A stretch of 37,345 nt of DNA from a virus (lineage: Duplodnaviria > Caudoviricetes): positions 1 through 37,345 of the IMG/VR virus record IMGVR_UViG_3300044513_001674; one strand, written 5' to 3'. Positions 2,783 to 24,130 of this stretch are shown here, piece after piece (within the stretch, counting starts at the first letter, position 1; every line of letters starts with the position of its first letter). Both the position numbers and the translations under genes were made by a program. A model generated the notes under the pieces. It was not told where the DNA came from, did not search any database, and saw nothing but the letters and a program-made list of their open reading frames with translations.

Positions 2783-2952
2783 TGGTCTTTGTTTGAACTG
2801 AACGTATTATACAAAGAAGGGTCGCCCTTTGGACGACCCATGTGACGCTTTTTGAACTGGCGCAGTGCTTCACGCCTTGCTCTCAACGCCTGAGGTTTAA
2901 GTTTTCTCTTCTGTTCTTTTTTAGAGTGGTGTTGCCAATTCGGGGTTGTCAT
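2761..2952 (-). CDS. Small basic hypothetical protein (start at ATG 2952, 63 aa)
   Basis: MTTPNWQHHSKKEQKRKLKPQALRARREALRQFKKR, strongly K/R-rich; resembles a small ORF I recall at this locus in cyanomyoviruses. Confidence 0.55.
   Translation of the reverse strand: MTTPNWQHHSKKEQKRKLKPQALRARREALRQFKKRHMGRPKGDPSLYNTFSSNKDQCLSTNK
2806..2862 (-). promoter_or_regulatory. Putative early promoter cassette for the peptidase/vWA gene
   Basis: Minus strand reads GCCAGTTCAAAAAGCGTCACATG-N27-TATAAT (2806-2811), with hairpin GGGTCGTCC-AAA-GGGCGACCC (2819-2839); same architecture as 593-650. Confidence 0.65.
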
Positions 2953-3664
2953 TGATCGTATCCAGAACATTGATGGTAGGGAACCATCCAGTACTAGTTA
3001 GCAAACTAACATCCGCAACGTTGTCTTGTCTCTCTCCAGGAGTCAGTTCTTTAACTGGCAAGTGACCCATCCCCATCTTCTCAGCAAGTTCTCTAACTGA
3101 TACAGATTTTCCAGATCCTACAGAAACTGGTCCACAAATTTTGCTACTTGCAAGATAACAAATAGCGCGACAAACATCTTTAACATGAATCCAATCTCTG
3201 CGGTGATTAGTCACATAAGTTGCGGTTTTATCTTCAAGCATACGATACATCATATCTGGACGACTATCGGGTCCATATACAGTTGTAAATCTCATCCCAA
3301 CTGAGTTTGGTGGTGCCATTTGCTCATTAATCCATTTTGTCATGGCATATGGATTTTCCCAGTAATCTTCCTCAACTGCACTAGAGGAAGCATACAAAAG
3401 TCTTGTATTAGTTTCTCTACACCAATCAAAAAGTTTTTTGGACTTTACCACATTATTCTCATAAAACTTTTGAGGATTTTCTAGACTATCCCTGATGTTT
3501 GCAAATGCTGCAAGGTGAATAACCAACTCATATTCACCACCATCAAAGTTACTAATGTCATATGGGAAGTCCATTCCCACAACAAGATTATTGTGAGTGC
3601 TTTGCCAATCAGCAAATACGTTCCTACCAATAAATCCCCTATGACCAGTGATTAAAATCTTCAT
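2921..3664 (-). CDS. NAD-dependent epimerase/dehydratase (extended SDR, nucleotide-sugar epimerase)
   Basis: ILITGHRGFIG (GxxGxxG), IHLAA, YASSS, YAMTK (YxxxK), RFTTVYGP, RDWIHVKDV. Confidence 0.9.
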   Translation of the reverse strand: MKILITGHRGFIGRNVFADWQSTHNNLVVGMDFPYDISNFDGGEYELVIHLAAFANIRDSLENPQKFYENNVVKSKKLFDWCRETNTRLLYASSSAVEEDYWENPYAMTKWINEQMAPPNSVGMRFTTVYGPDSRPDMMYRMLEDKTATYVTNHRRDWIHVKDVCRAICYLASSKICGPVSVGSGKSVSVRELAEKMGMGHLPVKELTPGERQDNVADVSLLTSTGWFPTINVLDTINDNPELATPL

Positions 3665-13025: not shown

Positions 13026-13679
13026 TCAAAGTGAATTGAGGAAGTCATTAAAGAGAGATAACTTCTTCTCTTCCAAAACCCTTGACCTTGCTGCTTCTTC
13101 AATTCTTCTCTGAGTTTGTCTGGCGAGTTTTTCGCGGAGGATGCCACCATCCCAGACCCACTCTTTACCTTCCATAATTCCCTCAACAAATGCATCGGGA
13201 GCGGAAGGATCGGCAACGATATCTGCTGCAGTAGCAAGCATAAAATCTTCGCCAACTTCTTTATAACCTGCCTTAATATTGTCTCTTAAAGAACCAATAC
13301 CACGAGAAGATACTCCAAGAGTAACTCCGTCCTTCAGAAGCGCCTCAGCAATTTTACCCATTGGAGTGTGCAGAATCTGCGCTTTGCCAACGAAGTTATT
13401 GCCGTCTTGCCTCAACTCAGTAATCTTATGTGAAACTCTATCGAGGTTTACGGTAGGACCATCGGGGTGACCTAACTCCCCAAGTGCTCTACCCTTAGCA
13501 ACATAGTCTTTGGTATAACGCTTTACTTCCCTTTCCATAATATTGAAGGGATACATTCTACCATTACGGTTGACCATCTCACTCTGAAGGAATACGCCCT
13601 TAATGAACATATTCTTCTTACCGTTTACGGTTTCAGTGAGAACTTCTACCTTCTCAATTTCTTCTCTAATGAGTTTCAT
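13026..13679 (-). CDS. g21: Prohead protease gp21
   Basis: MKLIRE, NRNGRMY, ALGELGHP, LGVSSRGIGS, DIVADPSAPDAFVEGIME. Confidence 0.97.
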   Translation of the reverse strand: MKLIREEIEKVEVLTETVNGKKNMFIKGVFLQSEMVNRNGRMYPFNIMEREVKRYTKDYVAKGRALGELGHPDGPTVNLDRVSHKITELRQDGNNFVGKAQILHTPMGKIAEALLKDGVTLGVSSRGIGSLRDNIKAGYKEVGEDFMLATAADIVADPSAPDAFVEGIMEGKEWVWDGGILREKLARQTQRRIEEAARSRVLEEKKLSLFNDFLNSL

Positions 13680-13717: not shown

Positions 13718-13885
13718 TCAGTCTTCAGCGTCTTTAAACTCTTCTTCGTCAAACATGGAGTTGTTAACTCCTGGTCTAATCGCTTCAATTTTTTCGGCAG
13801 ATTTGGTATAAAGAATCTCTTTAATCTTATCTGATACATTAGTGGGTGATTCATCACTAATAATCATATCTAGAAGGTCGTCCAT
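13718..13885 (-). CDS. Small acidic prohead-core-type protein (gp67-like position), 55 aa
   Basis: Likely start ATG 13885: MDDLLDMIISDESPTNVSDKIKEILYTKSAEKIEAIRP; preceded by CTAAATA; occupies the usual slot between g20 and g21. Confidence 0.72.
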   Translation of the reverse strand: MDDLLDMIISDESPTNVSDKIKEILYTKSAEKIEAIRPGVNNSMFDEEEFKDAED

Positions 13886-13908: not shown

Positions 13909-13923
13909 TATTTAGGATAAATA
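13909..13923. promoter_or_regulatory. Back-to-back divergent late promoters
   Basis: TATTTAG (13909-13915; CTAAATA on minus) then ATAAATA (13917-13923 on plus), 1 nt apart, in the 56-nt gap between divergent starts. Confidence 0.65.
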
Positions 13924-13941
13924 CGAAAAAGGGTTTTTGTA

Positions 13942-14859
13942 ATGGATGGGTTCCCTCATATCTACTATACAAATGTTGATCGTAAAGTAGATAGAAAGCA
14001 GTATATGGAATCTCAGTTTGATTCTCTTGGATTATCTTATACAAGAGTTGAGATGTTATCTTGCCCTAAAGATGGTCCACCAAAAAACTTTTTAGATAAC
14101 CTAACAGGCACATATCCAGATAACTGTTCTCAATGGATAAACTGGTATGGTTCTTTATTGTTTGATTTTTTTGAAGACTGGTTGACAACCGATCAAGATT
14201 ATCTTCTTTTTATGGAAGATGATTATGACTTATCTCTAATAACAAAATGGCACTTCACTTGGGAAGAGTTTATGAATAGAGTTCCATATGATTGGGACTG
14301 TATTCAACTTGGATTTGAATCTCCAGATATAATTCCGTTTTATTTACATCCAACTAGACCACAGTACTCTTTGGGACCATGTTTGTTGAGAAGAGATTAT
14401 GTTGAGAAGTTAGTTAGTCTCCATAAACCATCGGGCAAATATAAATTTGATTACAGAATTGCGAATCATATTTACATTGATAGAGACTCTGGAATACATG
14501 ATGGTTGGGACTATGTTGCAACTTCTGGTGGTCCAGACTATTATATAAATCAATCGGGTAAAAGTTATTCGATACCACTAATCCCAATGAATCCATACCT
14601 TGCTGGAATTAGTCATCAAGGACCATTTGGAGAACTAGATTGGAAACCAAAACTTAGTTTTGTTAAATGTCATGAGGCATATCATGAATGGTGGAGTAAT
14701 GATAGGGATAATTTTACCCTAGATGAGTTCTTTACTTATGGTAAAGATAATGATGTTCTAATGGAAAAAGACATTTCCAGATGGGACGATAAATATTTCT
14801 ACGACCTGGCGATGAATAATGCGGAACGTTTATCTTTTTCAACCTCAGTATTCAGTTGA
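13942..14859 (+). CDS. Glycosyltransferase family 25-like
   Basis: IYYTNVDRKVDRKQYMESQF (GT25 N-terminal motif), LLFMEDDYD (EDD), VPYDWDCIQLG. Confidence 0.8.
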   Translation: MDGFPHIYYTNVDRKVDRKQYMESQFDSLGLSYTRVEMLSCPKDGPPKNFLDNLTGTYPDNCSQWINWYGSLLFDFFEDWLTTDQDYLLFMEDDYDLSLITKWHFTWEEFMNRVPYDWDCIQLGFESPDIIPFYLHPTRPQYSLGPCLLRRDYVEKLVSLHKPSGKYKFDYRIANHIYIDRDSGIHDGWDYVATSGGPDYYINQSGKSYSIPLIPMNPYLAGISHQGPFGELDWKPKLSFVKCHEAYHEWWSNDRDNFTLDEFFTYGKDNDVLMEKDISRWDDKYFYDLAMNNAERLSFSTSVFS

Positions 14860-16615
14860 AGTAAGAAAGGAAGATAATTATTGGTTACCTTATAGTGTTG
14901 CTTGTCTATGGAGTTACTGTGGACAATTTGATGACATTAAAGATAATTACGAGTTAAAAGATATCATCTTTAAAAGAGAACATCCAGATAAACTATTAGA
15001 TAGATTAGACAACCCGCGTTTGTGTGCATTTAGTTGTTATATTTGGAACGAGAGATATTGCTTAACTATTGCAGAACTAATTAAGAGAAGATATCCAGAG
15101 TGTATTATTGAATTTGGTGGACCGCAAGCAACTAAAAAAATGCTCGATGAGAATGATTTTATCGATTGCATTATGCTTGGGGGAGATGGTGAAGTTAACT
15201 TCTTGGATTTACTGAGAACTATTGTAGAAGGAAAAGATATAACTCGCATTTACGAGAGGGGAAGAATACAAGACTTAGAGTTTCTGAGTCCATATCAAAC
15301 TGGATTGTTTGATAAATTGGTCTCCGAAAATCCAGATACTTTGTGGGCAACTGTTATTGAATCTAATAGAGGATGTCCCCATAGATGTACTTACTGCGAC
15401 TGGGGTGGTACGACTATGAGTAAAATTAACAAGTTTAACTTGCAAAGAGTTCAAGATGATATTGAATGGGCGCGTGATAATAACGTGGCATTCTTAATGA
15501 TGACTGATGCAAATTTTGGAATATTTGCTGAGAGAGATTTGGAGATTGCAAAACTATTGAAGAAAGCGGGAGATCATCCAAATAGCAAGATCGAAGATAT
15601 TGTTCTTCAGTACTCCAAAAACTCAAATGAGGTTGTATTTGAGATTACAAAAGAGATGGGTGGATTTGCGAGACGTGGTGTTACCGTCAGTGTTCAGAGT
15701 ATGAATCAACCAACTCTTAAAGCAATTAAGAGAAAAAATTTACATATAAAAGACCTCAAAGGACATATGGAACTTGCCAGAAAATGGGGAGTTCGTACAT
15801 ACTCCGAATTGATTCTTGGTTTACCTGAAGAAACATTAGAGTCTTGGAAGGATGGAATTTGCACCCTACTAGAATGCGGTCAACATGAGTCTATTGACGT
15901 TTGGTTCTGTCAAGTTTTTGGCAACACTGAATTGAACAGTGCTTTATCGAGAGAAGTATATGGAATTCAAACAGTACAAGCAGAAGATTATGTATCATTC
16001 ACAAATACTAAAGATTGTATAGAAATTAAAGAGACCGTAGAAATTATTAAAGGAACGAATACATTACCGACAGAAGAATTAATAGAGGCGTATCTTTATG
16101 CATGGATGATAGTACAATTCCATATCAATGGATATTCTCAAGTAATATCAAAGTATTATAGAAACAAAAATAAAACCAAATATAGAGAATTTTATGACCG
16201 ATTGTTTAGTGCAATAAAAAGTGATCCTGTTTTATTTGGGCAGCATTATAAAAATCTCTACGACAAAATATATAATTACATGACCACTGGAAAAGTTACC
16301 GACAGCACTGGACATGCATTAGAAATGTCAATGGCGACGGACTACAATTTATTTTGGGAGAATAAAGAGCATACATTTGGTCTAATCTCTAAATGTTGGC
16401 AGGTTGAAGATTACCTACTAGATTTCCAAAAAGAATTTGTATATAATCCACATAGAGAGTATCCAATAAAATTATCTTTACCATTCGATTTGGACACTTG
16501 GGAAGATAGGAATACCAACTACAATATTTGTAATCCTAGAGAAGAATCTGAGAGATATGACATGTGGGTATTAAAGCGCAAAGGTCTTGATAAAAATACT
16601 ATTGTAAAATTATGA
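14819..16615 (+). CDS. Cobalamin (B12)-binding radical SAM enzyme, paralog 1
   Basis: N-terminal B12-binding-like domain (LPYSVA, AFSCYIWN, GGPQAT, GDGE); ESNRGCPHRCTYCDW (CxxxCxxC); DANFG; SVQS; ELILGLPEET. Confidence 0.9.
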   Translation: MRNVYLFQPQYSVEVRKEDNYWLPYSVACLWSYCGQFDDIKDNYELKDIIFKREHPDKLLDRLDNPRLCAFSCYIWNERYCLTIAELIKRRYPECIIEFGGPQATKKMLDENDFIDCIMLGGDGEVNFLDLLRTIVEGKDITRIYERGRIQDLEFLSPYQTGLFDKLVSENPDTLWATVIESNRGCPHRCTYCDWGGTTMSKINKFNLQRVQDDIEWARDNNVAFLMMTDANFGIFAERDLEIAKLLKKAGDHPNSKIEDIVLQYSKNSNEVVFEITKEMGGFARRGVTVSVQSMNQPTLKAIKRKNLHIKDLKGHMELARKWGVRTYSELILGLPEETLESWKDGICTLLECGQHESIDVWFCQVFGNTELNSALSREVYGIQTVQAEDYVSFTNTKDCIEIKETVEIIKGTNTLPTEELIEAYLYAWMIVQFHINGYSQVISKYYRNKNKTKYREFYDRLFSAIKSDPVLFGQHYKNLYDKIYNYMTTGKVTDSTGHALEMSMATDYNLFWENKEHTFGLISKCWQVEDYLLDFQKEFVYNPHREYPIKLSLPFDLDTWEDRNTNYNICNPREESERYDMWVLKRKGLDKNTIVKL

Positions 16616-18378
16616 GAAATCTATACATGTTCCAACCGCAATATGCGGTAGAAGTTAGAAACGAAGATACGTATTGGTTACCTTATAGTGTAGGTTGTTT
16701 GTGGGCATATTGTACCCAGTATGAAGATATTGCAAGTGGATATTATCTTAAAGATTTAATTTTTAAAAGAGAGAATCCTGAAGAACTTGTCAATAGATTG
16801 GATAATCCTGCAGTCTGTGCTTTTAGTTGTTATATTTGGAATGAGCAATACAATCTGCATGTTGCAAAATTAATTAAAGAAAAATATCCTGAGTGCATTA
16901 TTGAATTTGGTGGACCACAGGCAACTGATAAACTTGCAAAGTATGAATTTATAGATTGTATTATCATATCTGAAGGAGAAGAAGCATTCTTAGATCTTCT
17001 TAGAAAAGTAATGCATAGAGAACCTTTTGAGAGAATCTACAGAAAACAAAGAATTGAAGACCTTGATTTCCCAAGTCCATATCAAATGGGAGTCTTTAAT
17101 AAAATTATTAAAGAGAATCCAAATGTTCTCTGGTCAATGACTATAGAAACAAATCGTGGGTGTCCTCATAGATGCACTTATTGTGATTGGGGTGGAATGA
17201 CATATCAAAAAGTAAAGCATTTTGATATAACACGAGTCAAAGAAGATATTGATTGGGCAGCAAAGCACAATGTTGGTTTTATTTTTAATGCCGATGCAAA
17301 CTTCGGCATGTTTAAAGAACGCGATGTTGAGATTGCAAAGTTGTTTAGAAAGGCAGCAGATGAAGGTAAACTTGAAGCAATCAACGTTCAATACTCAAAA
17401 AATTCAACTGAGGTTATTTTTGAGATCGCACAAATTCTTGGGGATATTAGTAGAGGCGTAACATTGAGTGTTCAAACTATGAACGAACCAACGCTTAAAT
17501 CAATTAAGCGTAAGAACATGAGCATCAATAAAATCTCAGAGCAGATTGAGAAAAGTAAAAAATATGGAGTAAAAACATATACTGAACTTATCCTTGGTCT
17601 GCCAGATGAGACTTTAGATAGTTGGAAAGAAGGATTTTCAAAAATTCTTGAATGTGGACAACACGAATCAATTGATGTTTGGTTTTGCCAAATGTTTGGT
17701 GATACAGAACTAAACAGCGCAACTTCTAGAGAAGTCTTTGGCATCAAAACTATTAAAGCAGAAGATTATATGTCATTCAGTAATGACGAATATGACATCA
17801 AAGAAGTTATAGAATTAATATCAGAAACAAATACAATGAGTAATGATGAACTTATTGAGGCATATATGTATGGTTGGTTGATAGTTCAATTCCATATTGC
17901 GGGATATACTCAGTTAATTGCAAAACACTTCTTCAATAATTTAAACATAACTTATAGAAAGTTTTATGATGCTTTATTTGATCATGTTAGGAATGATACT
18001 GGCATTATTGGTGATCACTACAGAGAAATTGAGAGAGCAGTAAGTCACTACATGAAGACTGGAAAGATACTTGGCACTGGTAAGCATGGGCACACATTAC
18101 ATGCAGGAAGTTTTGCATTTATGTTTAATAATAAAGATGCCATATTTAAGATGACAGAAGACGTTAGTAGATCATTTATTAATGTTGAATCCGATGTATT
18201 GAAACTACAAAGAGCATTCATTTTTGATGAGAACGCTGAATATCCGTTCTATCTTGAATGCTCTGATAGTAAGTATAAAATTGATACCGAGTTCAAAGAA
18301 TTTGATAAGAATGATCCCCACACCGTTTTTATTTTGAGGCGTAAAGGTCTACTGAAGAATCAATTATGTAAGGTTTAA
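16612..18378 (+). CDS. Cobalamin (B12)-binding radical SAM enzyme, paralog 2
   Basis: Same architecture: AFSCYIWN, GGPQAT, SEGE, ETNRGCPHRCTYCDW, DANFG, ELILGLPDET; ATGA overlap with paralog 1. Confidence 0.9.
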   Translation: MRNLYMFQPQYAVEVRNEDTYWLPYSVGCLWAYCTQYEDIASGYYLKDLIFKRENPEELVNRLDNPAVCAFSCYIWNEQYNLHVAKLIKEKYPECIIEFGGPQATDKLAKYEFIDCIIISEGEEAFLDLLRKVMHREPFERIYRKQRIEDLDFPSPYQMGVFNKIIKENPNVLWSMTIETNRGCPHRCTYCDWGGMTYQKVKHFDITRVKEDIDWAAKHNVGFIFNADANFGMFKERDVEIAKLFRKAADEGKLEAINVQYSKNSTEVIFEIAQILGDISRGVTLSVQTMNEPTLKSIKRKNMSINKISEQIEKSKKYGVKTYTELILGLPDETLDSWKEGFSKILECGQHESIDVWFCQMFGDTELNSATSREVFGIKTIKAEDYMSFSNDEYDIKEVIELISETNTMSNDELIEAYMYGWLIVQFHIAGYTQLIAKHFFNNLNITYRKFYDALFDHVRNDTGIIGDHYREIERAVSHYMKTGKILGTGKHGHTLHAGSFAFMFNNKDAIFKMTEDVSRSFINVESDVLKLQRAFIFDENAEYPFYLECSDSKYKIDTEFKEFDKNDPHTVFILRRKGLLKNQLCKV

Positions 18379-18991
18379 ATGCTTCTAATGCTTCATCCCA
18401 CAAAATTCTTCTCTCATATGGAGTATTTTTATCCATCAAAGCAATAGTAATAGTAAATCTTTTGTTATCTGTTGGATTGTGTGAACTATGAAGTGGTCCA
18501 ACGTTAACTAAACTTGGTGTTGATACATCTGCTTCATATTCAAGAGTTGAATATTGTTCTCTTGTTACTAAAACTTGTCCATGATAATGATCGTTAGTTC
18601 TATCTCCAACATTATATTCACTTCTTTCTGGAATATCTGTTGAACAAACTTGTTCTGCGCTGGTGCTAACTCGCATAACCATATCAGATTTCCACCACCT
18701 CATTGTGGTTCCTTCTCCATCAAATTGGAATATAAGTTTTGCCCAGTCAGCATAATAGACATTATCTGAATGTATTACTCCATCATCATGAGGTGGAGTA
18801 TAGAAAAATTCTATCCAGGTAGAGGTAAATCCCATACTCTCTAACCATGGTTTTATTTTATCGTTGTCAAGATCTTCAAATTGCAACTGTTTATGAAATT
18901 CTGGCCAACGTATTCCTTCTGTTTTATACTTAGACACATCAATATTGGGGATATACTCCCCAATATCTAAAAATCTATGATAACGATTCAT
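18329..18991 (-). CDS. Putative Fe(II)/2-oxoglutarate-type (cupin/DSBH) oxygenase
   Basis: FFYTPP...VIHSD (HxD), distal PSLVNVGPLHSSHN (H) and KRFTITI (basic residue then beta strand) match the facial-triad layout; starts 2 nt after the g20 stop. Confidence 0.6.
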   Translation of the reverse strand: MNRYHRFLDIGEYIPNIDVSKYKTEGIRWPEFHKQLQFEDLDNDKIKPWLESMGFTSTWIEFFYTPPHDDGVIHSDNVYYADWAKLIFQFDGEGTTMRWWKSDMVMRVSTSAEQVCSTDIPERSEYNVGDRTNDHYHGQVLVTREQYSTLEYEADVSTPSLVNVGPLHSSHNPTDNKRFTITIALMDKNTPYERRILWDEALEAFKPYIIDSSVDLYASK

Positions 18992-18993
18992 AA

Positions 18994-20652
18994 CTAAACA
19001 ATTCCAGGTGCTTCAGTACTTCCTCCATCTTTTGCACCATCAAGATTTGGTTCTTGAATTGGTGCTCCCAAATCTTCACCACCAGCAGGCATTGGTTCTC
19101 CAGTTGCAGGATCAATTGGTGCATTTGGATCTGGAATAATTCCAGCGGCAATCTCTTTTTTAATGAGTTTATCTTGTTCAATAATCTCTTCATCTGTCTG
19201 ACGAAGAATTTTACGACGTACCCAATCTTGAGAATAATATTTGCCAATATATGGTTCAGCGGTTGCTGCAATATTAAGTCGCTCTGTCATCAACTCTGCT
19301 TCTTTAAGTTCAGAGAAATGATTATCATAAAGGAAGTCATACTGAATATGTTCAGACATGATCTCCCAGTCTTCTGGAGATACAATATTTTTAAGAAGAA
19401 GTTGAGTTCTCAACAAATCATTAAACATATTTGAGAATCTCTTTCTAAGTCTACCAACAAATTTAGTAAACTTAAGTTCGTCTCTTAAAATTTCAGAAGA
19501 ACGACCGAGGTTAAATCCTTCTTGTCCACCAATTCTAGATGATGGTACATTTAGGGAACGATACAACTTCTCTTGGAAGTACTTGATATCAGATAACTCT
19601 CCTAAGTTTTGTCCACCAGGAAGTGTAGAGATTTCTGTTCCTCTACCACCTTCGCGGCGAGGCAACCAGAAGTCTTCCAACATTGACATGTATTTTTTAT
19701 CATCTCTAATCTCACCAGTATTAGCATCATAAACCAACTTGTTACGATATCTCATCATAACATCACGGAGGTATTGTTCTGCCTTCATTTTAGGCAAGTT
19801 GCCAACATCAATATAAAAGATGCGACGTTCGGGAGCACGAGATAGGCGATAGATAACCAAAGAATCTTCAATCATTCTTAACTGATTGAGAGACTTAATT
19901 GCTTTATGAAGATATGATAAAGTAAGATTTTTATTGCGATCTACAAGACCAGATGTACAATATGTGATTGAATCTTTGGAGAATTTAACACCATTAGAAG
20001 CTTGATTATTGCCTCTATTAATGATTCCAGTCTGACTTGCTGATTGGTTATAAACAAAATATTCTTGAATATCTGGGAATCCAGTATCTTTTGGATCCTT
20101 TTCTCCACTAGGTAAATATCTAACATCTTCTGGTTTTTTCTTACCTGCTTGCCTTACAAACCGCATTTTTAATGCATCAATGTAACGCAATTCTTGAATT
20201 CCGTCTGTAGGATTTTTTATGTCAATTACTTTGTGGTAATATAGTCTTCCATCAACATACCAATTTCTGTAAATTTCATGGCACTTCTTATCGAAGTCCA
20301 TCATCTCCAGAATGTGCTTAAACTCTTCTCTAATTTTTTTCTTTAGTCCATCACTAGCATTGAGGTTTGATAACTCAATTTGTACTGGACTATCATTAGT
20401 ATCACTTACAATCGCCTCATTAACAATATCTTCGATAGCACCATCGACTTCGGGATGTAGTGCCATCTCCCTGTATCTTCTAATCAGATCATATTCTGAT
20501 TTATATACTCCCTCAATATCTACATACGAACCAAAAAACCCGCTGGTTAAATAATGGTCAACCCCGTCCTCATTATTTTGAGGAACGGGGGAGACCACAC
20601 CTTTGGGTTTCTTATCGTTATCTTCTATCGAAAATCCAAATAATTTGGCCAT
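18994..20652 (-). CDS. g20: Portal vertex protein gp20
   Basis: LFGFSI, YREMALHPEVD, WYVDGR, IEDSLVIYRLSRAPERRIFYIDVGNLPK, EDFWLPRREGGRGTEI. Confidence 0.98.
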   Translation of the reverse strand: MAKLFGFSIEDNDKKPKGVVSPVPQNNEDGVDHYLTSGFFGSYVDIEGVYKSEYDLIRRYREMALHPEVDGAIEDIVNEAIVSDTNDSPVQIELSNLNASDGLKKKIREEFKHILEMMDFDKKCHEIYRNWYVDGRLYYHKVIDIKNPTDGIQELRYIDALKMRFVRQAGKKKPEDVRYLPSGEKDPKDTGFPDIQEYFVYNQSASQTGIINRGNNQASNGVKFSKDSITYCTSGLVDRNKNLTLSYLHKAIKSLNQLRMIEDSLVIYRLSRAPERRIFYIDVGNLPKMKAEQYLRDVMMRYRNKLVYDANTGEIRDDKKYMSMLEDFWLPRREGGRGTEISTLPGGQNLGELSDIKYFQEKLYRSLNVPSSRIGGQEGFNLGRSSEILRDELKFTKFVGRLRKRFSNMFNDLLRTQLLLKNIVSPEDWEIMSEHIQYDFLYDNHFSELKEAELMTERLNIAATAEPYIGKYYSQDWVRRKILRQTDEEIIEQDKLIKKEIAAGIIPDPNAPIDPATGEPMPAGGEDLGAPIQEPNLDGAKDGGSTEAPGIV

Positions 20653-21325: not shown

Positions 21326-24130
21326 TCAAACTCTACCAGCGACTTCTTCAAAGCTGACGCCAGTTCTTGTAGCAACGAATGTCAGAGTTACATAGTTAAT
21401 AGACTTAGCAGGCTTCAGGAAGATGTCTGCTCTAAATTCGTTGTTATCAATAACGTCAGGGGTGTTGTTAGTCTCGTCGCAAATTACGAGATAGTCATAG
21501 AGTCCGCGCTTTGATTGAATATCGCGGAGATATGGTTCAACGATGTTTACAAAGTTTGTTCTTGTAATCTGATCGTTGAATTCAAAGAGTTGTGCTTCTG
21601 CTGCTCTTTGCAGTGATTGCTCAACTGTTAAGAACAAACGGCGAACGTTAATTCTGTCAAATGCAGATGCATATGCAAGTGCTGTCTTATCACCGAAGAG
21701 GATTACGCCAGCGCCAGTCTGATTAACTACTGAGTTAATTCTTGCAGAGTACAGAGAATCTCTTTGTGTTTTGTTTGGATTGTATGCAAGTTTAATTGCA
21801 TTCTTAATAACACCTCTTTGCTGACCTGCAGGTGAGAACCATGGGTAAGCAATGATGTTTGTTCTGCACATCAGACCAGCAATATCTCCGTTACATGGAA
21901 TGTAACGGAAGAGATTGTTGAATCTATCATAGGTGTACTTGTATCCACTATCAAAGATTGCATAAGAAGACGATGAAAGTGGACCAAAGAACTCAAGAAT
22001 ATTATTTGTTTGAACAACTGGATTGGTCAAATCAACAACACTTGCTCTGTGTGGAGAGACAACTGCCACACAGTCCTTTCTTCCATCTGCAATTGAGATT
22101 AGTTTGTTTGCCTTTGCTTGTGAATCACTAACAGTGTCCAAACCAGGACCCATGATCAAGTAATCAACTGCAACATCTTCTTTATTGTTGAATAATTCAT
22201 ATGCTTCAATAATAGAACCAAGACCAGACTTCAGATTTCCCTGAGTAGTGTAGTTTCTACCACTTTCAAGAGTGTATGTTACTGGTCCAATAGAACTAAA
22301 GGTTGCTCCTTGAGCATTTCTATCCCATGTCAAATTATTCAGAGCACTTGGAACAGAGAATATTGTTGCTGGATCAGAGAATGGATAGATTGTTGGAGTT
22401 GCAGCTAAAGAGAATACAGTTGATGTTGGGAATGTATTGTGGAATACATCATTCTGTGTGCTTTGGTTTGCACCAGCATACAGATATCTTGAGAAGTTTG
22501 CCAAGTAATTCTTATACCACAGTTTTTGTGGAGAATTGACTTGAGATACTGTATCTGTTGCTTTAGAGAGACCAAGATGTTTCTCTAAAATATTTCCTCT
22601 TACACCAGTCAGTGAACCGCTGTCATCAACAACGACGAGGTGCATCTCATCATTCTCACCATTTCTTTCGGCAACATAACCCGATGTTCCTGGTTTTGGT
22701 GCAATCGTTCTCCAGAATATAGTTGAGTTATCAAGACCCAGAGTTTGTGAGTTGTACCAATCATCAATACCAGCAATTGCAACTCTAGAATTTGCCTCTG
22801 TAACTTCAACAATAATCTTGTCGTCTCTAAGTGAAGATACTGCTAATGTTGCATCATCAGTTGGTGTTACACCACCAATTGCAGTTCCTGGGATAGTGAC
22901 AATAGTGGTTGACTCGTATCCGAGACCTTCCGCAACCATTGTGACGGTTCCAATTCCACCAGAAGCATTTCTATAAACATTGAAGGATACGCCAGTACCA
23001 ACAGTACTTACGCCAGCAACATTGATATAGATGCCATTTGATGCAGCGGGAACAGTGGATGCAGTTGTCAAACCAATTTGATCAATAGCACCTTGAGATA
23101 AATCGTAACCGCCAACTGCAGAACCAGCAAAGGTTACAGTTTCACCAACTGTGTATCCAAGTCCAGGATTAACAATAGTTACTCCGCCAGCATCAACATT
23201 ACCATCAGTGTTATTTCTTGTAATGGTAAATGTTCCTTGAGAACCAGCACCACTTGCAGTTCCAGCAATTCCAGTATAAACTTGACCCTGCTCCCCATTG
23301 ATTGCAGTAGATGTTGTAATTCCAACTGCAGAAAGAGAGTCTACTGGAGATGCAACGTCTCCATTGTTATCAATGAAACTGATTCTTTGATTTAAGAGGA
23401 ATGCTGAATATGCACTATTCTCAGTATACCTTACTCTATAGTGCCTTCCAGGTTGTGTTCCACCAGTCGATACTCTTGAGTGTATTTTTACAACAACTGC
23501 AGTTTGACCTAACTCTGGGCTATCAATTACTTGGGTAATCAAACCCTTTAAGTAACCCTGGAATGCTTCAGTTGTTCCAAGACCAGGAATAACTTGACCA
23601 CTGATATCTACAGTAACTCCGTATCCAACTTGAGCACCAACTGATGCACCAGATGTGGTTGCAATACCAAGGATTTGGTCTCCTAAGTCATCAATAACAC
23701 AAACCTTGAGATCGTTACCCCATGTGCCAGGGTTCTTTGCTGAATAATAGAAAGATGCAGCAGATGTTGCGTAGTTTGTGTTATAATCATCAAAGTTCTT
23801 AATCTTTGTTCCTGCAACAGAGGAAGTACCTACACCAACGTTTGAGTTAGCAAGATTGTCTCCGTCTGTACGAACAACTTTTAAAACACCACCATACTGC
23901 AAGTATGATGAAGCACTCATCCAGTACTCATACTGGTTGTCTTCTGTTTTTGGCTTACCAAAGTTGTTGATCAACTCTTGCTCAGTCGATACCGTGATAG
24001 GTTCGTTTACAGGTCCAAGCTCAAAGGGTCCTGCAATACCTCCAATATTGTCAAGAACATTTTCAGCTCTTCCTACGGTTAAATCAACCTCTCTAGTAAG
24101 TACACCAGGAGATAATTGAGGAGTCGCCAT
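21326..24130 (-). CDS. g18: Tail sheath protein gp18 (enlarged, 934 aa)
   Basis: LSPGVLTREVDLT, FGKP, AKNPGTWGN, PWFSPAG, FDRINVRRLF, FEFND, KPAKSINYVTLTFVATRTG. Confidence 0.97.
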   Translation of the reverse strand: MATPQLSPGVLTREVDLTVGRAENVLDNIGGIAGPFELGPVNEPITVSTEQELINNFGKPKTEDNQYEYWMSASSYLQYGGVLKVVRTDGDNLANSNVGVGTSSVAGTKIKNFDDYNTNYATSAASFYYSAKNPGTWGNDLKVCVIDDLGDQILGIATTSGASVGAQVGYGVTVDISGQVIPGLGTTEAFQGYLKGLITQVIDSPELGQTAVVVKIHSRVSTGGTQPGRHYRVRYTENSAYSAFLLNQRISFIDNNGDVASPVDSLSAVGITTSTAINGEQGQVYTGIAGTASGAGSQGTFTITRNNTDGNVDAGGVTIVNPGLGYTVGETVTFAGSAVGGYDLSQGAIDQIGLTTASTVPAASNGIYINVAGVSTVGTGVSFNVYRNASGGIGTVTMVAEGLGYESTTIVTIPGTAIGGVTPTDDATLAVSSLRDDKIIVEVTEANSRVAIAGIDDWYNSQTLGLDNSTIFWRTIAPKPGTSGYVAERNGENDEMHLVVVDDSGSLTGVRGNILEKHLGLSKATDTVSQVNSPQKLWYKNYLANFSRYLYAGANQSTQNDVFHNTFPTSTVFSLAATPTIYPFSDPATIFSVPSALNNLTWDRNAQGATFSSIGPVTYTLESGRNYTTQGNLKSGLGSIIEAYELFNNKEDVAVDYLIMGPGLDTVSDSQAKANKLISIADGRKDCVAVVSPHRASVVDLTNPVVQTNNILEFFGPLSSSSYAIFDSGYKYTYDRFNNLFRYIPCNGDIAGLMCRTNIIAYPWFSPAGQQRGVIKNAIKLAYNPNKTQRDSLYSARINSVVNQTGAGVILFGDKTALAYASAFDRINVRRLFLTVEQSLQRAAEAQLFEFNDQITRTNFVNIVEPYLRDIQSKRGLYDYLVICDETNNTPDVIDNNEFRADIFLKPAKSINYVTLTFVATRTGVSFEEVAGRV

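Follow-up and report, generated by a model that had tools for sequence, protein, structure and literature searches.

The stretch of DNA analysed here (the window) comprises positions 1 to 37,345 of the IMG/VR virus record IMGVR_UViG_3300044513_001674, 37 kb from the genome of a T4-like phage whose structural genes lie on the minus strand. Between its portal gene (g20) and its prohead protease gene (g21) sits a cassette of four genes encoding a GT25-like glycosyltransferase (GT), two radical S-adenosylmethionine (SAM) enzymes, rSAM-1 and rSAM-2, and a predicted Fe(II)/2-oxoglutarate (2OG) oxygenase. We found that the two radical SAM enzymes are of the cobalamin-dependent TokK/CysS type, and their sequences indicate that radical methylation of an sp3 carbon, on a substrate other than that of TokK, is their likely chemistry. 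Summed over the possible acceptors, the substrate is probably a sugar, and we tentatively favour a reading in which, late in infection, the enzymes C-methylate a sugar unit that GT25-like transferases attach to the virion. The cassette marks one uncultured cyanophage clade, where an enzyme type and a kind of phage glycan cluster that are each already known occur in a combination not described before.

A pair of TokK-type cobalamin radical SAM enzymes

The genes for rSAM-1 (14819-16615, plus strand, 598 aa) and rSAM-2 (16612-18378, plus strand, 588 aa) overlap by 4 nt (ATGA), and their products are 53% identical. Both exceeded the Pfam cut-off for Radical_SAM (PF04055), whereas their scores for B12-binding (PF02310; 19 and 26 bits) stayed below the cut-off of 32.1. 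We nevertheless assigned a B12-binding domain because the N-terminal cobalamin-binding Rossmann domain aligns to TokK in both sequence and fold, and this match settles the domain. A PDB sequence search returned TokK (E 1.7e-74) and CysS (E 6.4e-40) as the best solved relatives, and the AlphaFold model of rSAM-2 (pLDDT 87) gave TM scores of 0.88 to TokK and 0.76 to CysS, as against ≤0.50 to OxsB, TsrM and MgmA. No NCBIfam cut-off was reached, the best family being KedN5 (NF033712; 157.5 and 186.6 bits against 700), and PADLOC gave a single generic match, of rSAM-2 to PDC-M51A.

The likeness to TokK and ThnK, which act in carbapenem C6 alkylation (PDB 7kdx, 7kdy), and to CysS, which acts in cystobactamid alkoxy extension (PDB 9n1b-d), lies in the three-domain fold, the lower-axial Trp76 and a CxxxCxxC motif followed by DW. 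The three cysteines of this motif were invariant in 115/115 rows (52 rSAM-1 and 63 rSAM-2). With equivalences counted by hand on the PDB-search alignment, the counterpart of TokK Trp76 (W76) was present in 52/52 rSAM-1 and 62/63 rSAM-2 sequences, the last having a gap, and that of Trp215, which is the CDW tryptophan W193 of rSAM-2, in 52/52 and 63/63. The accessible passages of the TokK preprint (10.1101/2021.07.10.451909) describe these two tryptophans as common to TokK, ThnK and CysS, say that the other methylases aligned lack them, and give Arg280 as the residue that anchors the carbapenam. At the Arg280 position rSAM-2 has asparagine (N258, 63/63) and rSAM-1 has Val, Thr, Asp or Ser, and the phage enzymes are therefore not TokK orthologs. 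TokK Leu383 aligns with Cys359 of the phage enzyme, the paralogs differ at positions 18-20 and 497-500, which lie close to residues given for the channels of TokK and CysS, and the substrate-channel positions are variable among rSAM-1 alleles and fixed in rSAM-2. Because Trp76, Trp215 and the cysteines are kept while position 258 and the channel positions differ, TokK-type chemistry would be directed at another substrate. The phage enzymes further differ from TokK, ThnK and CysS in being only about 25% identical to them and in having a shorter C-terminal domain. A carbapenem or nonribosomal peptide synthetase substrate was rejected: Arg280 is lost, genes of these kinds do not lie near the cassette, and none was found among the 147 of 217 proteins scanned in G001, a complete 246.5 kb relative that carries both twin enzymes.

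In a FastTree tree of 61 rows, whose long-branch joins among cellular rows were left uninterpreted, 41 viral proteins formed one branch (support 99) separate from 15 cellular ones, with five divergent viral proteins outside it. The cyanophage enzymes form a sub-branch (support 97) with a single split, which separates rSAM-1, on long branches, from rSAM-2, on short ones. The assignment of both proteins to the cobalamin radical SAM methylases, already proposed by a first-pass annotation made from the sequence alone, is thus upheld by the TokK match in sequence and fold and by the invariant Trp and Cys residues. It is very improbable that the enzymes are not methylases (performing rearrangement, ring or redox chemistry instead) or that the cassette is a passenger with no coupled function. 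Cobalamin radical SAM enzymes do include non-methylases such as OxsB, and the best NCBIfam score amounted to 187 of 700 bits, but the TokK-type residues are invariant, the cassette is present in all six close relatives, and its reading frames and promoter motifs are conserved.

Eight of ten longer rSAM homologs consist of two such modules fused in one chain, which suggests that the pairs may act together. Proteins P0121-P0128 (1271-1321 aa) contain two complete TokK-like modules each, and the TokK-like homologs P0129 and P0130 have intein/Hint domains inserted close to the iron-sulfur motif. Some clade members have a third, more divergent rSAM paralog upstream of the GT (525 aa; L007:3851-5428, and L011), and in the cellular loci L080 and L084 four or five radical SAM genes follow one another, several of them B12-binding; in L080 a GT2 gene lies in their midst.

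Partner enzymes, distribution and allele exchange

The g20-g21 gap measures 5.3 kb in the window and 5315 nt in the near-identical locus L159. The GT gene (13942-14859, plus strand, 305 aa) overlaps rSAM-1 by 41 nt, and the oxygenase gene (18329-18991, minus strand, 220 aa) overlaps rSAM-2 tail to tail by 50 nt and starts 2 nt past the stop of g20 (18994-20652, minus strand). GC skew reverses sign across ~14.0-18.5 kb, that is, over the plus-strand trio, and no other plus-strand open reading frame (ORF) in the window exceeds 143 aa. These measurements agree with the first-pass annotation, which had described a head module interrupted by ~5 kb, a trio forming the only credible plus-strand genes, and a minus-strand HxD...H oxygenase directly behind the portal stop. 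Its list of four enzymes also stands, but it had overlooked a small conserved head-module core gene at the left border of the cassette (13718-13885, minus strand, 55 aa; PHROG 14164/2088), which we take to be gp67-like. Beyond it lies g21 (13026-13679, minus strand), assigned, as was g20, by Pfam and PHROG.

No Pfam family, PF01755 included, was matched by the GT, and a PDB sequence search with its profile returned nothing significant. The protein matched PHROG 2835 and, with identities of up to 35%, 98 phage records, of which 91 belong to cultured cyanophages; annotated cyanophage homologs lie at 25-35%. Its profile matched two G001 proteins (1e-85 and 5e-41) that both pass PF01755. On this profile link, the PHROG and the annotated homologs we describe it as a GT25-like GT-A glycosyltransferase, a more guarded label than the original GT25 call, for which the direct Pfam match was negative. 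Its MEDDYDL motif was invariant (19/19), the EDD within it presumably having an acidic metal-binding role; a longer, fused GT form was not seen among 562 candidates, which is weak evidence.

The oxygenase likewise had no match in Pfam, PHROG, NCBIfam or PDB sequence. Its H74, D76 and H168 were invariant in 12/12 sequences and R178 was present in at least 90%. The top fold matches of its model (pLDDT 81) were 2OG oxygenases and cupins, at a moderate level (Foldseek E 2e-4, TM 0.3; VIA Z 8.7, rmsd 3.1 over 127 aligned, near the level that the tool calls common), and the nearest named Atlas clusters lay at 0.89. The HxD...H motif and these moderate fold matches, set against the negative family libraries, make a double-stranded beta-helix enzyme of the Fe(II)/2OG class the probable prediction. 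Neither the GT nor the oxygenase was matched by PADLOC.

A search with rSAM-2 recovered 78 IMG/VR loci, 73 of them at the g20-g21 site, and among 61 close oxygenase homologs an rSAM gene was next in 57 and a contig edge in four, while 17 distant homologs lie elsewhere; the recurrent linkage, which the first look had set as a check, is thus supported. Artefact or shadow ORFs were rejected as an explanation, and 73 of 78 is far beyond chance. For the phage-specific branch of the enzymes we estimate ~1,000 IMG/VR stretches. In a g21 control search, in which the best 80 of 599 matches were confirmed and 6 of 64 database parts scanned, an rSAM was found in 6/6 loci with g21 at least 83% identical and in 0/74 with g21 at most 79% identical, g20 being in view for 64 of the latter, several of which carry virion structural genes there instead. 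No close rSAM homolog was found among 50,697 records of cultured phages, where each query gave one weak partial match and very near genomes were possibly omitted.

Within the clade, the cassette varies. Among 42 loci spanning the site (selected via rSAM-2, with the window included and near-duplicates kept), at least two rSAMs were present in 38, the GT in 28, the oxygenase in 29, both of these in 23 and neither in eight. An obligatory four-gene unit was rejected on these counts. Pairwise identity correlated with that of the portal at 0.92 for the oxygenase, 0.84 for rSAM-2, 0.36 for rSAM-1 and 0.19 for the GT, pairs that are not independent of one another; where portals were at least 90% alike, median identity was 91% for rSAM-2, 64% for the GT and 56% for rSAM-1. 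GT clusters 2 and 3 occurred only with rSAM-1 cluster 2 (8/8), across three portal clusters. Thus rSAM-2, the conserved paralog, and the oxygenase follow the portal gene, while the GT and the fast-evolving rSAM-1, which has nine allele clusters, are swapped between allele types. The GT and the oxygenase showed no co-variation given the portal (partial rho -0.04), and a single four-step pathway, the hydroxylate-glycosylate-methylate route first proposed, is therefore unsupported, each of the two enzymes being optional. A GT-less sub-clade (L041-L047, L057, L058 and L063) has a gene of 118-141 aa and unknown function between g20 and the oxygenase, for example at L041:4430-4855 on the minus strand, and some of its members have a small plus-strand ORF before rSAM-1.

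Sugar substrate and candidate acceptors

Evidence on the substrate came from the neighbours of distant relatives. In 19 distant viral loci, counted after one duplicate and six island-type loci were left out, a NAD sugar epimerase was present in 14 (directly upstream of the rSAM in nine), a short DegT-like gene in 12, a small oxygenase in 11, and in nine a protein, an oxygenase, matching the 'sporadic carbohydrate cluster' models TIGR04323/04324. A sugar-pathway neighbour was also present in 10 of 18 cellular loci, a count drawn from the top 19 of 80 loci with 4 of 64 parts and 118 of 127 neighbours scanned, and not set against a background rate. In the clade itself, G001 (L249:7121-19263) and G003 (L255:4476-15260) carry a cluster between the helicase and MazG genes with DegT-like, small oxygenase, amidinotransferase, UDP-sugar dehydrogenase and sulfotransferase-like genes and five to six GT25-like paralogs, and in L054 an rSAM-2 ortholog lies exactly between helicase and MazG. 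The cultured phage S-SCSM2R has the same DegT-like, oxygenase and amidinotransferase partners without a TokK-type enzyme. Because distant relatives often adjoin nucleotide-sugar genes and their usual partners sit in the clade's helicase-MazG cluster, a sugar substrate is likely.

The clade also resembles the cyanophage 'lipopolysaccharide (LPS) / cell-wall modification' clusters of P-SSM2, S-SCSM1 and S-SCSM2R in its GT25-like genes (35% identity to S-SCSM2R ORF307) and in the DegT-like, small oxygenase and amidinotransferase partners. It differs from them in that the cassette sits within the head block and is read from the opposite strand, and the radical SAM protein of S-SCSM2R is a different one (266 aa, annotated to the SkfB/NifB/PqqE family).

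In the mechanism we propose, the rSAM enzymes would use host cobamide to place carbon-bound methyl groups on a sugar unit late in infection. As in the established chemistry of TokK and CysS, one SAM would methylate cob(I)alamin and a second would yield the 5'-deoxyadenosyl radical, which would abstract hydrogen at an sp3 carbon; the methyl group would then pass to the resulting substrate radical, possibly repeatedly (mechanism of radical methylation at sp3 carbon as given in the accessible part of the CysS preprint, 10.1101/2025.11.17.688841). The substrate may be a nucleotide sugar or glycan from the helicase-MazG cluster, on which the mark written by rSAM-2 would be constant and that written by rSAM-1 with the cassette GT would vary; hydroxylation by the oxygenase may fall on the same sugar unit or on an acceptor residue. 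The acceptor would be a virion protein, to which GT25-like transferases would attach the sugar.

Timing is indicated by motifs matching what we take to be the T4-type late promoter consensus. Two of them lie back to back at the cassette border, ATAAATA (13917-13923, plus strand) ahead of the cassette and CTAAATA (13909-13915, minus strand) ahead of the 55-aa core gene and g21, and a second plus-strand motif (14789-14795) lies in the 3' end of the GT gene, 30 nt before the rSAM-1 start. Both plus-strand motifs of the window are thus in the cassette, as against 15 motifs on the minus strand. The motif ahead of the cassette was found in 46 of 49 loci, the misses being two with overlapping ORF calls and L030 with the minus motif only. 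The internal motif was retained in 37/37 GT alleles, even where the preceding residue differs; we rely on this count alone, the D/N-K-Y codon control having contained GT sites. The late expression anticipated in the first-pass annotation is supported by these conserved motifs. Metatranscriptome contigs, ~99% identical and at depth 2-15, covered the junction between GT and rSAM-1 (X19) as well as parts of rSAM-1 (X18) and, in X17, of rSAM-2 and the oxygenase, but RNA-library contigs carry no strand, level or start and may reflect DNA carry-over, so they are not proof of late transcription. Scans for sigma-70 promoters and terminators stayed at chance (26 against 26.8 expected, and 3 against 2.0).

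Position, timing and the mycobacteriophage precedent are the reasons for which we put the virion slightly ahead of the host surface as acceptor. The cassette lies in the head block, and in the sister phages L165-L180 virion structural genes (PHROG 1645 and 1742), which the window has near g17, occupy the g20-g21 interval. Glycosylated mycobacteriophage capsids (Freeman 2023) are cited in PMC12619734 and PMC12801897; there the decoration of virion proteins by phage glycosyltransferases is shown, here it would follow from the genes, and the passages concerned do not mention radical methylation.

That the same sugar chemistry serves a host surface polysaccharide (O-antigen or capsule), masking receptors from competitors or keeping progeny off lysis debris, is doubtful but deserves serious weight. 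GT25 is an LPS-biosynthesis family by its Pfam description, polysaccharide genes are a frequent setting for the cellular homologs, allele swapping is in keeping with an arms race, and a host-surface role has been proposed for cyanophage and pelagiphage GT clusters in passages of PMC7824862, PMC12801897 and PMC7029224, where the proposals stand untested. Late timing, however, would leave little time for surface remodelling, and rSAM-2 is fixed clade-wide and tracks the portal gene.

Several observations weigh against virion glycan methylation, these host-surface proposals among them. The late motif precedes 50 of 217 G001 genes, a photosystem gene included, so that virion genes are not singled out and the motif indicates timing, not a virion role. 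The g20-g21 interval is an insertion hot spot in related phages, and its varied insertions make position weak evidence. The GT is absent from 14 of the 42 spanning loci; it also shows a correlation with rSAM-2 (partial 0.46), g19 (tail tube) departs from the portal too (0.32), and the co-variation of GT and rSAM-1 could be plain linkage. On the substrate side, eight of the 18 cellular loci had no sugar-pathway neighbour, and the loci counted for neighbourhoods are not independent of each other, most of the distant viral ones resembling one lineage. Cobalamin radical SAM enzymes are sensitive to oxygen, which the host likely produces. The TokK and CysS substrates are pantetheine-linked small molecules, not sugars, according to the accessible parts of 10.1101/2021.07.10.451909 and 10.1101/2025.11.17.688841. 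The virion reading, finally, draws on genes and not on a substrate, a product or a glycan.

Direct C-methylation of virion-protein residues by the rSAM enzymes, in the manner of Mmp10, QCMT and PoyC and with the GT and oxygenase as independent passengers, appears improbable. The rSAM is the sole constant part of the cassette (eight of 42 spanning loci having neither GT nor oxygenase), rSAM-2 tracks structural genes, and the oxygenase fold matches include protein hydroxylases. Yet the fold is much nearer to TokK and CysS than to the protein methylase MgmA (TM 0.43), distant viral relatives adjoin sugar genes away from head genes, and clade genomes without the cassette GT retain GT25-like paralogs.

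Less probable still is that the cassette and the helicase-MazG cluster together make a diffusible amino- or guanidino-sugar metabolite, similar to an aminoglycoside, and decorate no polymer. A DegT-like aminotransferase, an amidinotransferase and a B12 methylase do form the aminoglycoside tailoring toolkit. Passages of PMC12801897 call the DegT-like and amidinotransferase genes antibiotic synthesis genes, and passages of PMC7824862 allow a secondary metabolite for another cyanophage cluster. The five to six GT25-like paralogs fit chain building better, however, and it is hard to see what a lytic phage would gain from a small molecule made late in its cycle.

About equally improbable is a role in tailoring a sugar placed on packaged DNA as a base hypermodification, one of the targets first considered and now disfavoured in this clade. 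An oxygenase with a GT follows the known logic of TET/JBP systems (available text of 10.1101/2023.12.21.572611), and resembles phage DNA hypermodification by TET/5mYOX with a GT or by 7-deazaguanine Dpd clusters. Dpd-type clusters of other phages hold distant rSAM homologs: in a second lineage, an rSAM homolog of 43-49% identity is an optional add-on (8/80 loci) to a cluster with FolE, QueD, QueE, DpdL-like, TGT-like and GT-B genes. Such deazaguanine-type clusters may raise DNA as an acceptor for the wider rSAM family. In contrast, the precursor routes looked for (FolE/Que, ThyA-type hydroxymethylase and C5-methyltransferase) were found in 0/5 clade records, the complete G001 included, with positive controls detected, and none of the TGT-like, DpdL-like, QueE and GT-B profiles found a match in G001. 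A search for TET/JBP dioxygenases also gave 0/5, its positive control being undetected as well. The clade avoids words of restriction type: CCGG does not occur at all in the window (0 against 17 expected), G001 (0 against 121) and G003 (0 against 57), and AGCT and GGCC are depleted, whereas the deazaguanine-cluster loci do not avoid CCGG (362 against 278 expected), a contrast that is only suggestive as hosts may differ.

The second lineage consists of large phages (contigs ≤331 kb; L282-L361, e.g. L283, L291, L314 and L352) with a conserved cluster of clamp-like, TGT-like, DpdL-like, GT-B, sugar epimerase, short DegT-like, FolE, QueD and QueE genes, which looks like a 7-deazaguanine DNA modification system with an added sugar. 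In 80 loci retrieved with GT-B as query, FolE was present in 65 and the TGT-like, DpdL-like and epimerase genes in 68 each. The TGT label follows an Atlas lead of 0.92, PF01702 being found in 17% of that cluster, and the protein had no PHROG, NCBIfam, PADLOC or PDB match; the DpdL label follows the LxxxHRHxF motif given in the accessible text of 10.1101/2023.04.13.536721. The same type of cluster also occurs at L073, L263-L266, L270, L274-L277 and L280, and we estimate ~950 IMG/VR stretches with it. A brief literature search found no paper on it.

Host, literature and significance

The closest cultured portals are those of Synechococcus phages (75-77% identity), and two photosystem II reaction-centre genes are present in G001 and also in G002, though not in three shorter records (2/5); on these two grounds the host is likely a cyanobacterium. 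The DNA sources of the cassette loci are labelled aquatic, freshwater, marine and marsh. GCGC is absent from G001 (0 against 90 expected) and present in the window (28 against 31), and the missing or depleted words suggest host restriction pressure that differs among clade members. Elsewhere in the window, the tail sheath gene gp18 (21326-24130) encodes a protein of 934 aa, which has a large insertion rich in Gly, Thr and Ser and is a candidate glycan acceptor, and a NAD-dependent sugar epimerase/dehydratase gene (2921-3664) follows g46 directly, at a distance of 10 kb from the cassette.

We found no paper on a phage TokK-type enzyme or on this cassette, in a search that left supplements and most subscription journals outside, and this agrees with the earlier remark that no described phage pathway with this combination was known. 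Passages of PMC9723712 mention viral B12-binding radical SAM proteins with no function given, those of PMC7029224 mention radical SAM cassettes in pelagiphage islands, and the words 'radical' and 'cobalamin' are absent from the main text of 10.1101/2023.12.21.572611 and PMC13326640.

TokK/CysS-type enzymes are known from soil bacteria, where they act in antibiotic pathways; the clade described here, uncultured and widespread, has a phage-specific branch of them as a fixed trait. If the phage enzymes methylate sugars, they would be new enzymes for hard C-C bond formation, a C-methyl sugar would serve as an easy tracer for what cyanophage glycosyltransferases decorate, and infection would be linked to host pseudocobalamin (PMC5816740, in the passages available). 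A broader reading, unlikely but worth stating, is that the phage TokK-type branch builds C-methyl, ethyl or isopropyl groups on sugars, the fixed rSAM-2 with the swappable rSAM-1 and GT giving a hypervariable, pseudocobalamin-dependent virion glycan coat, and the second lineage acting on a sugar on 7-deazaguanine DNA. If that were true, viruses would encode B12-dependent radical alkylation of glycans, and phage surface identity would be tied to the cobalt and B12 status of the host.

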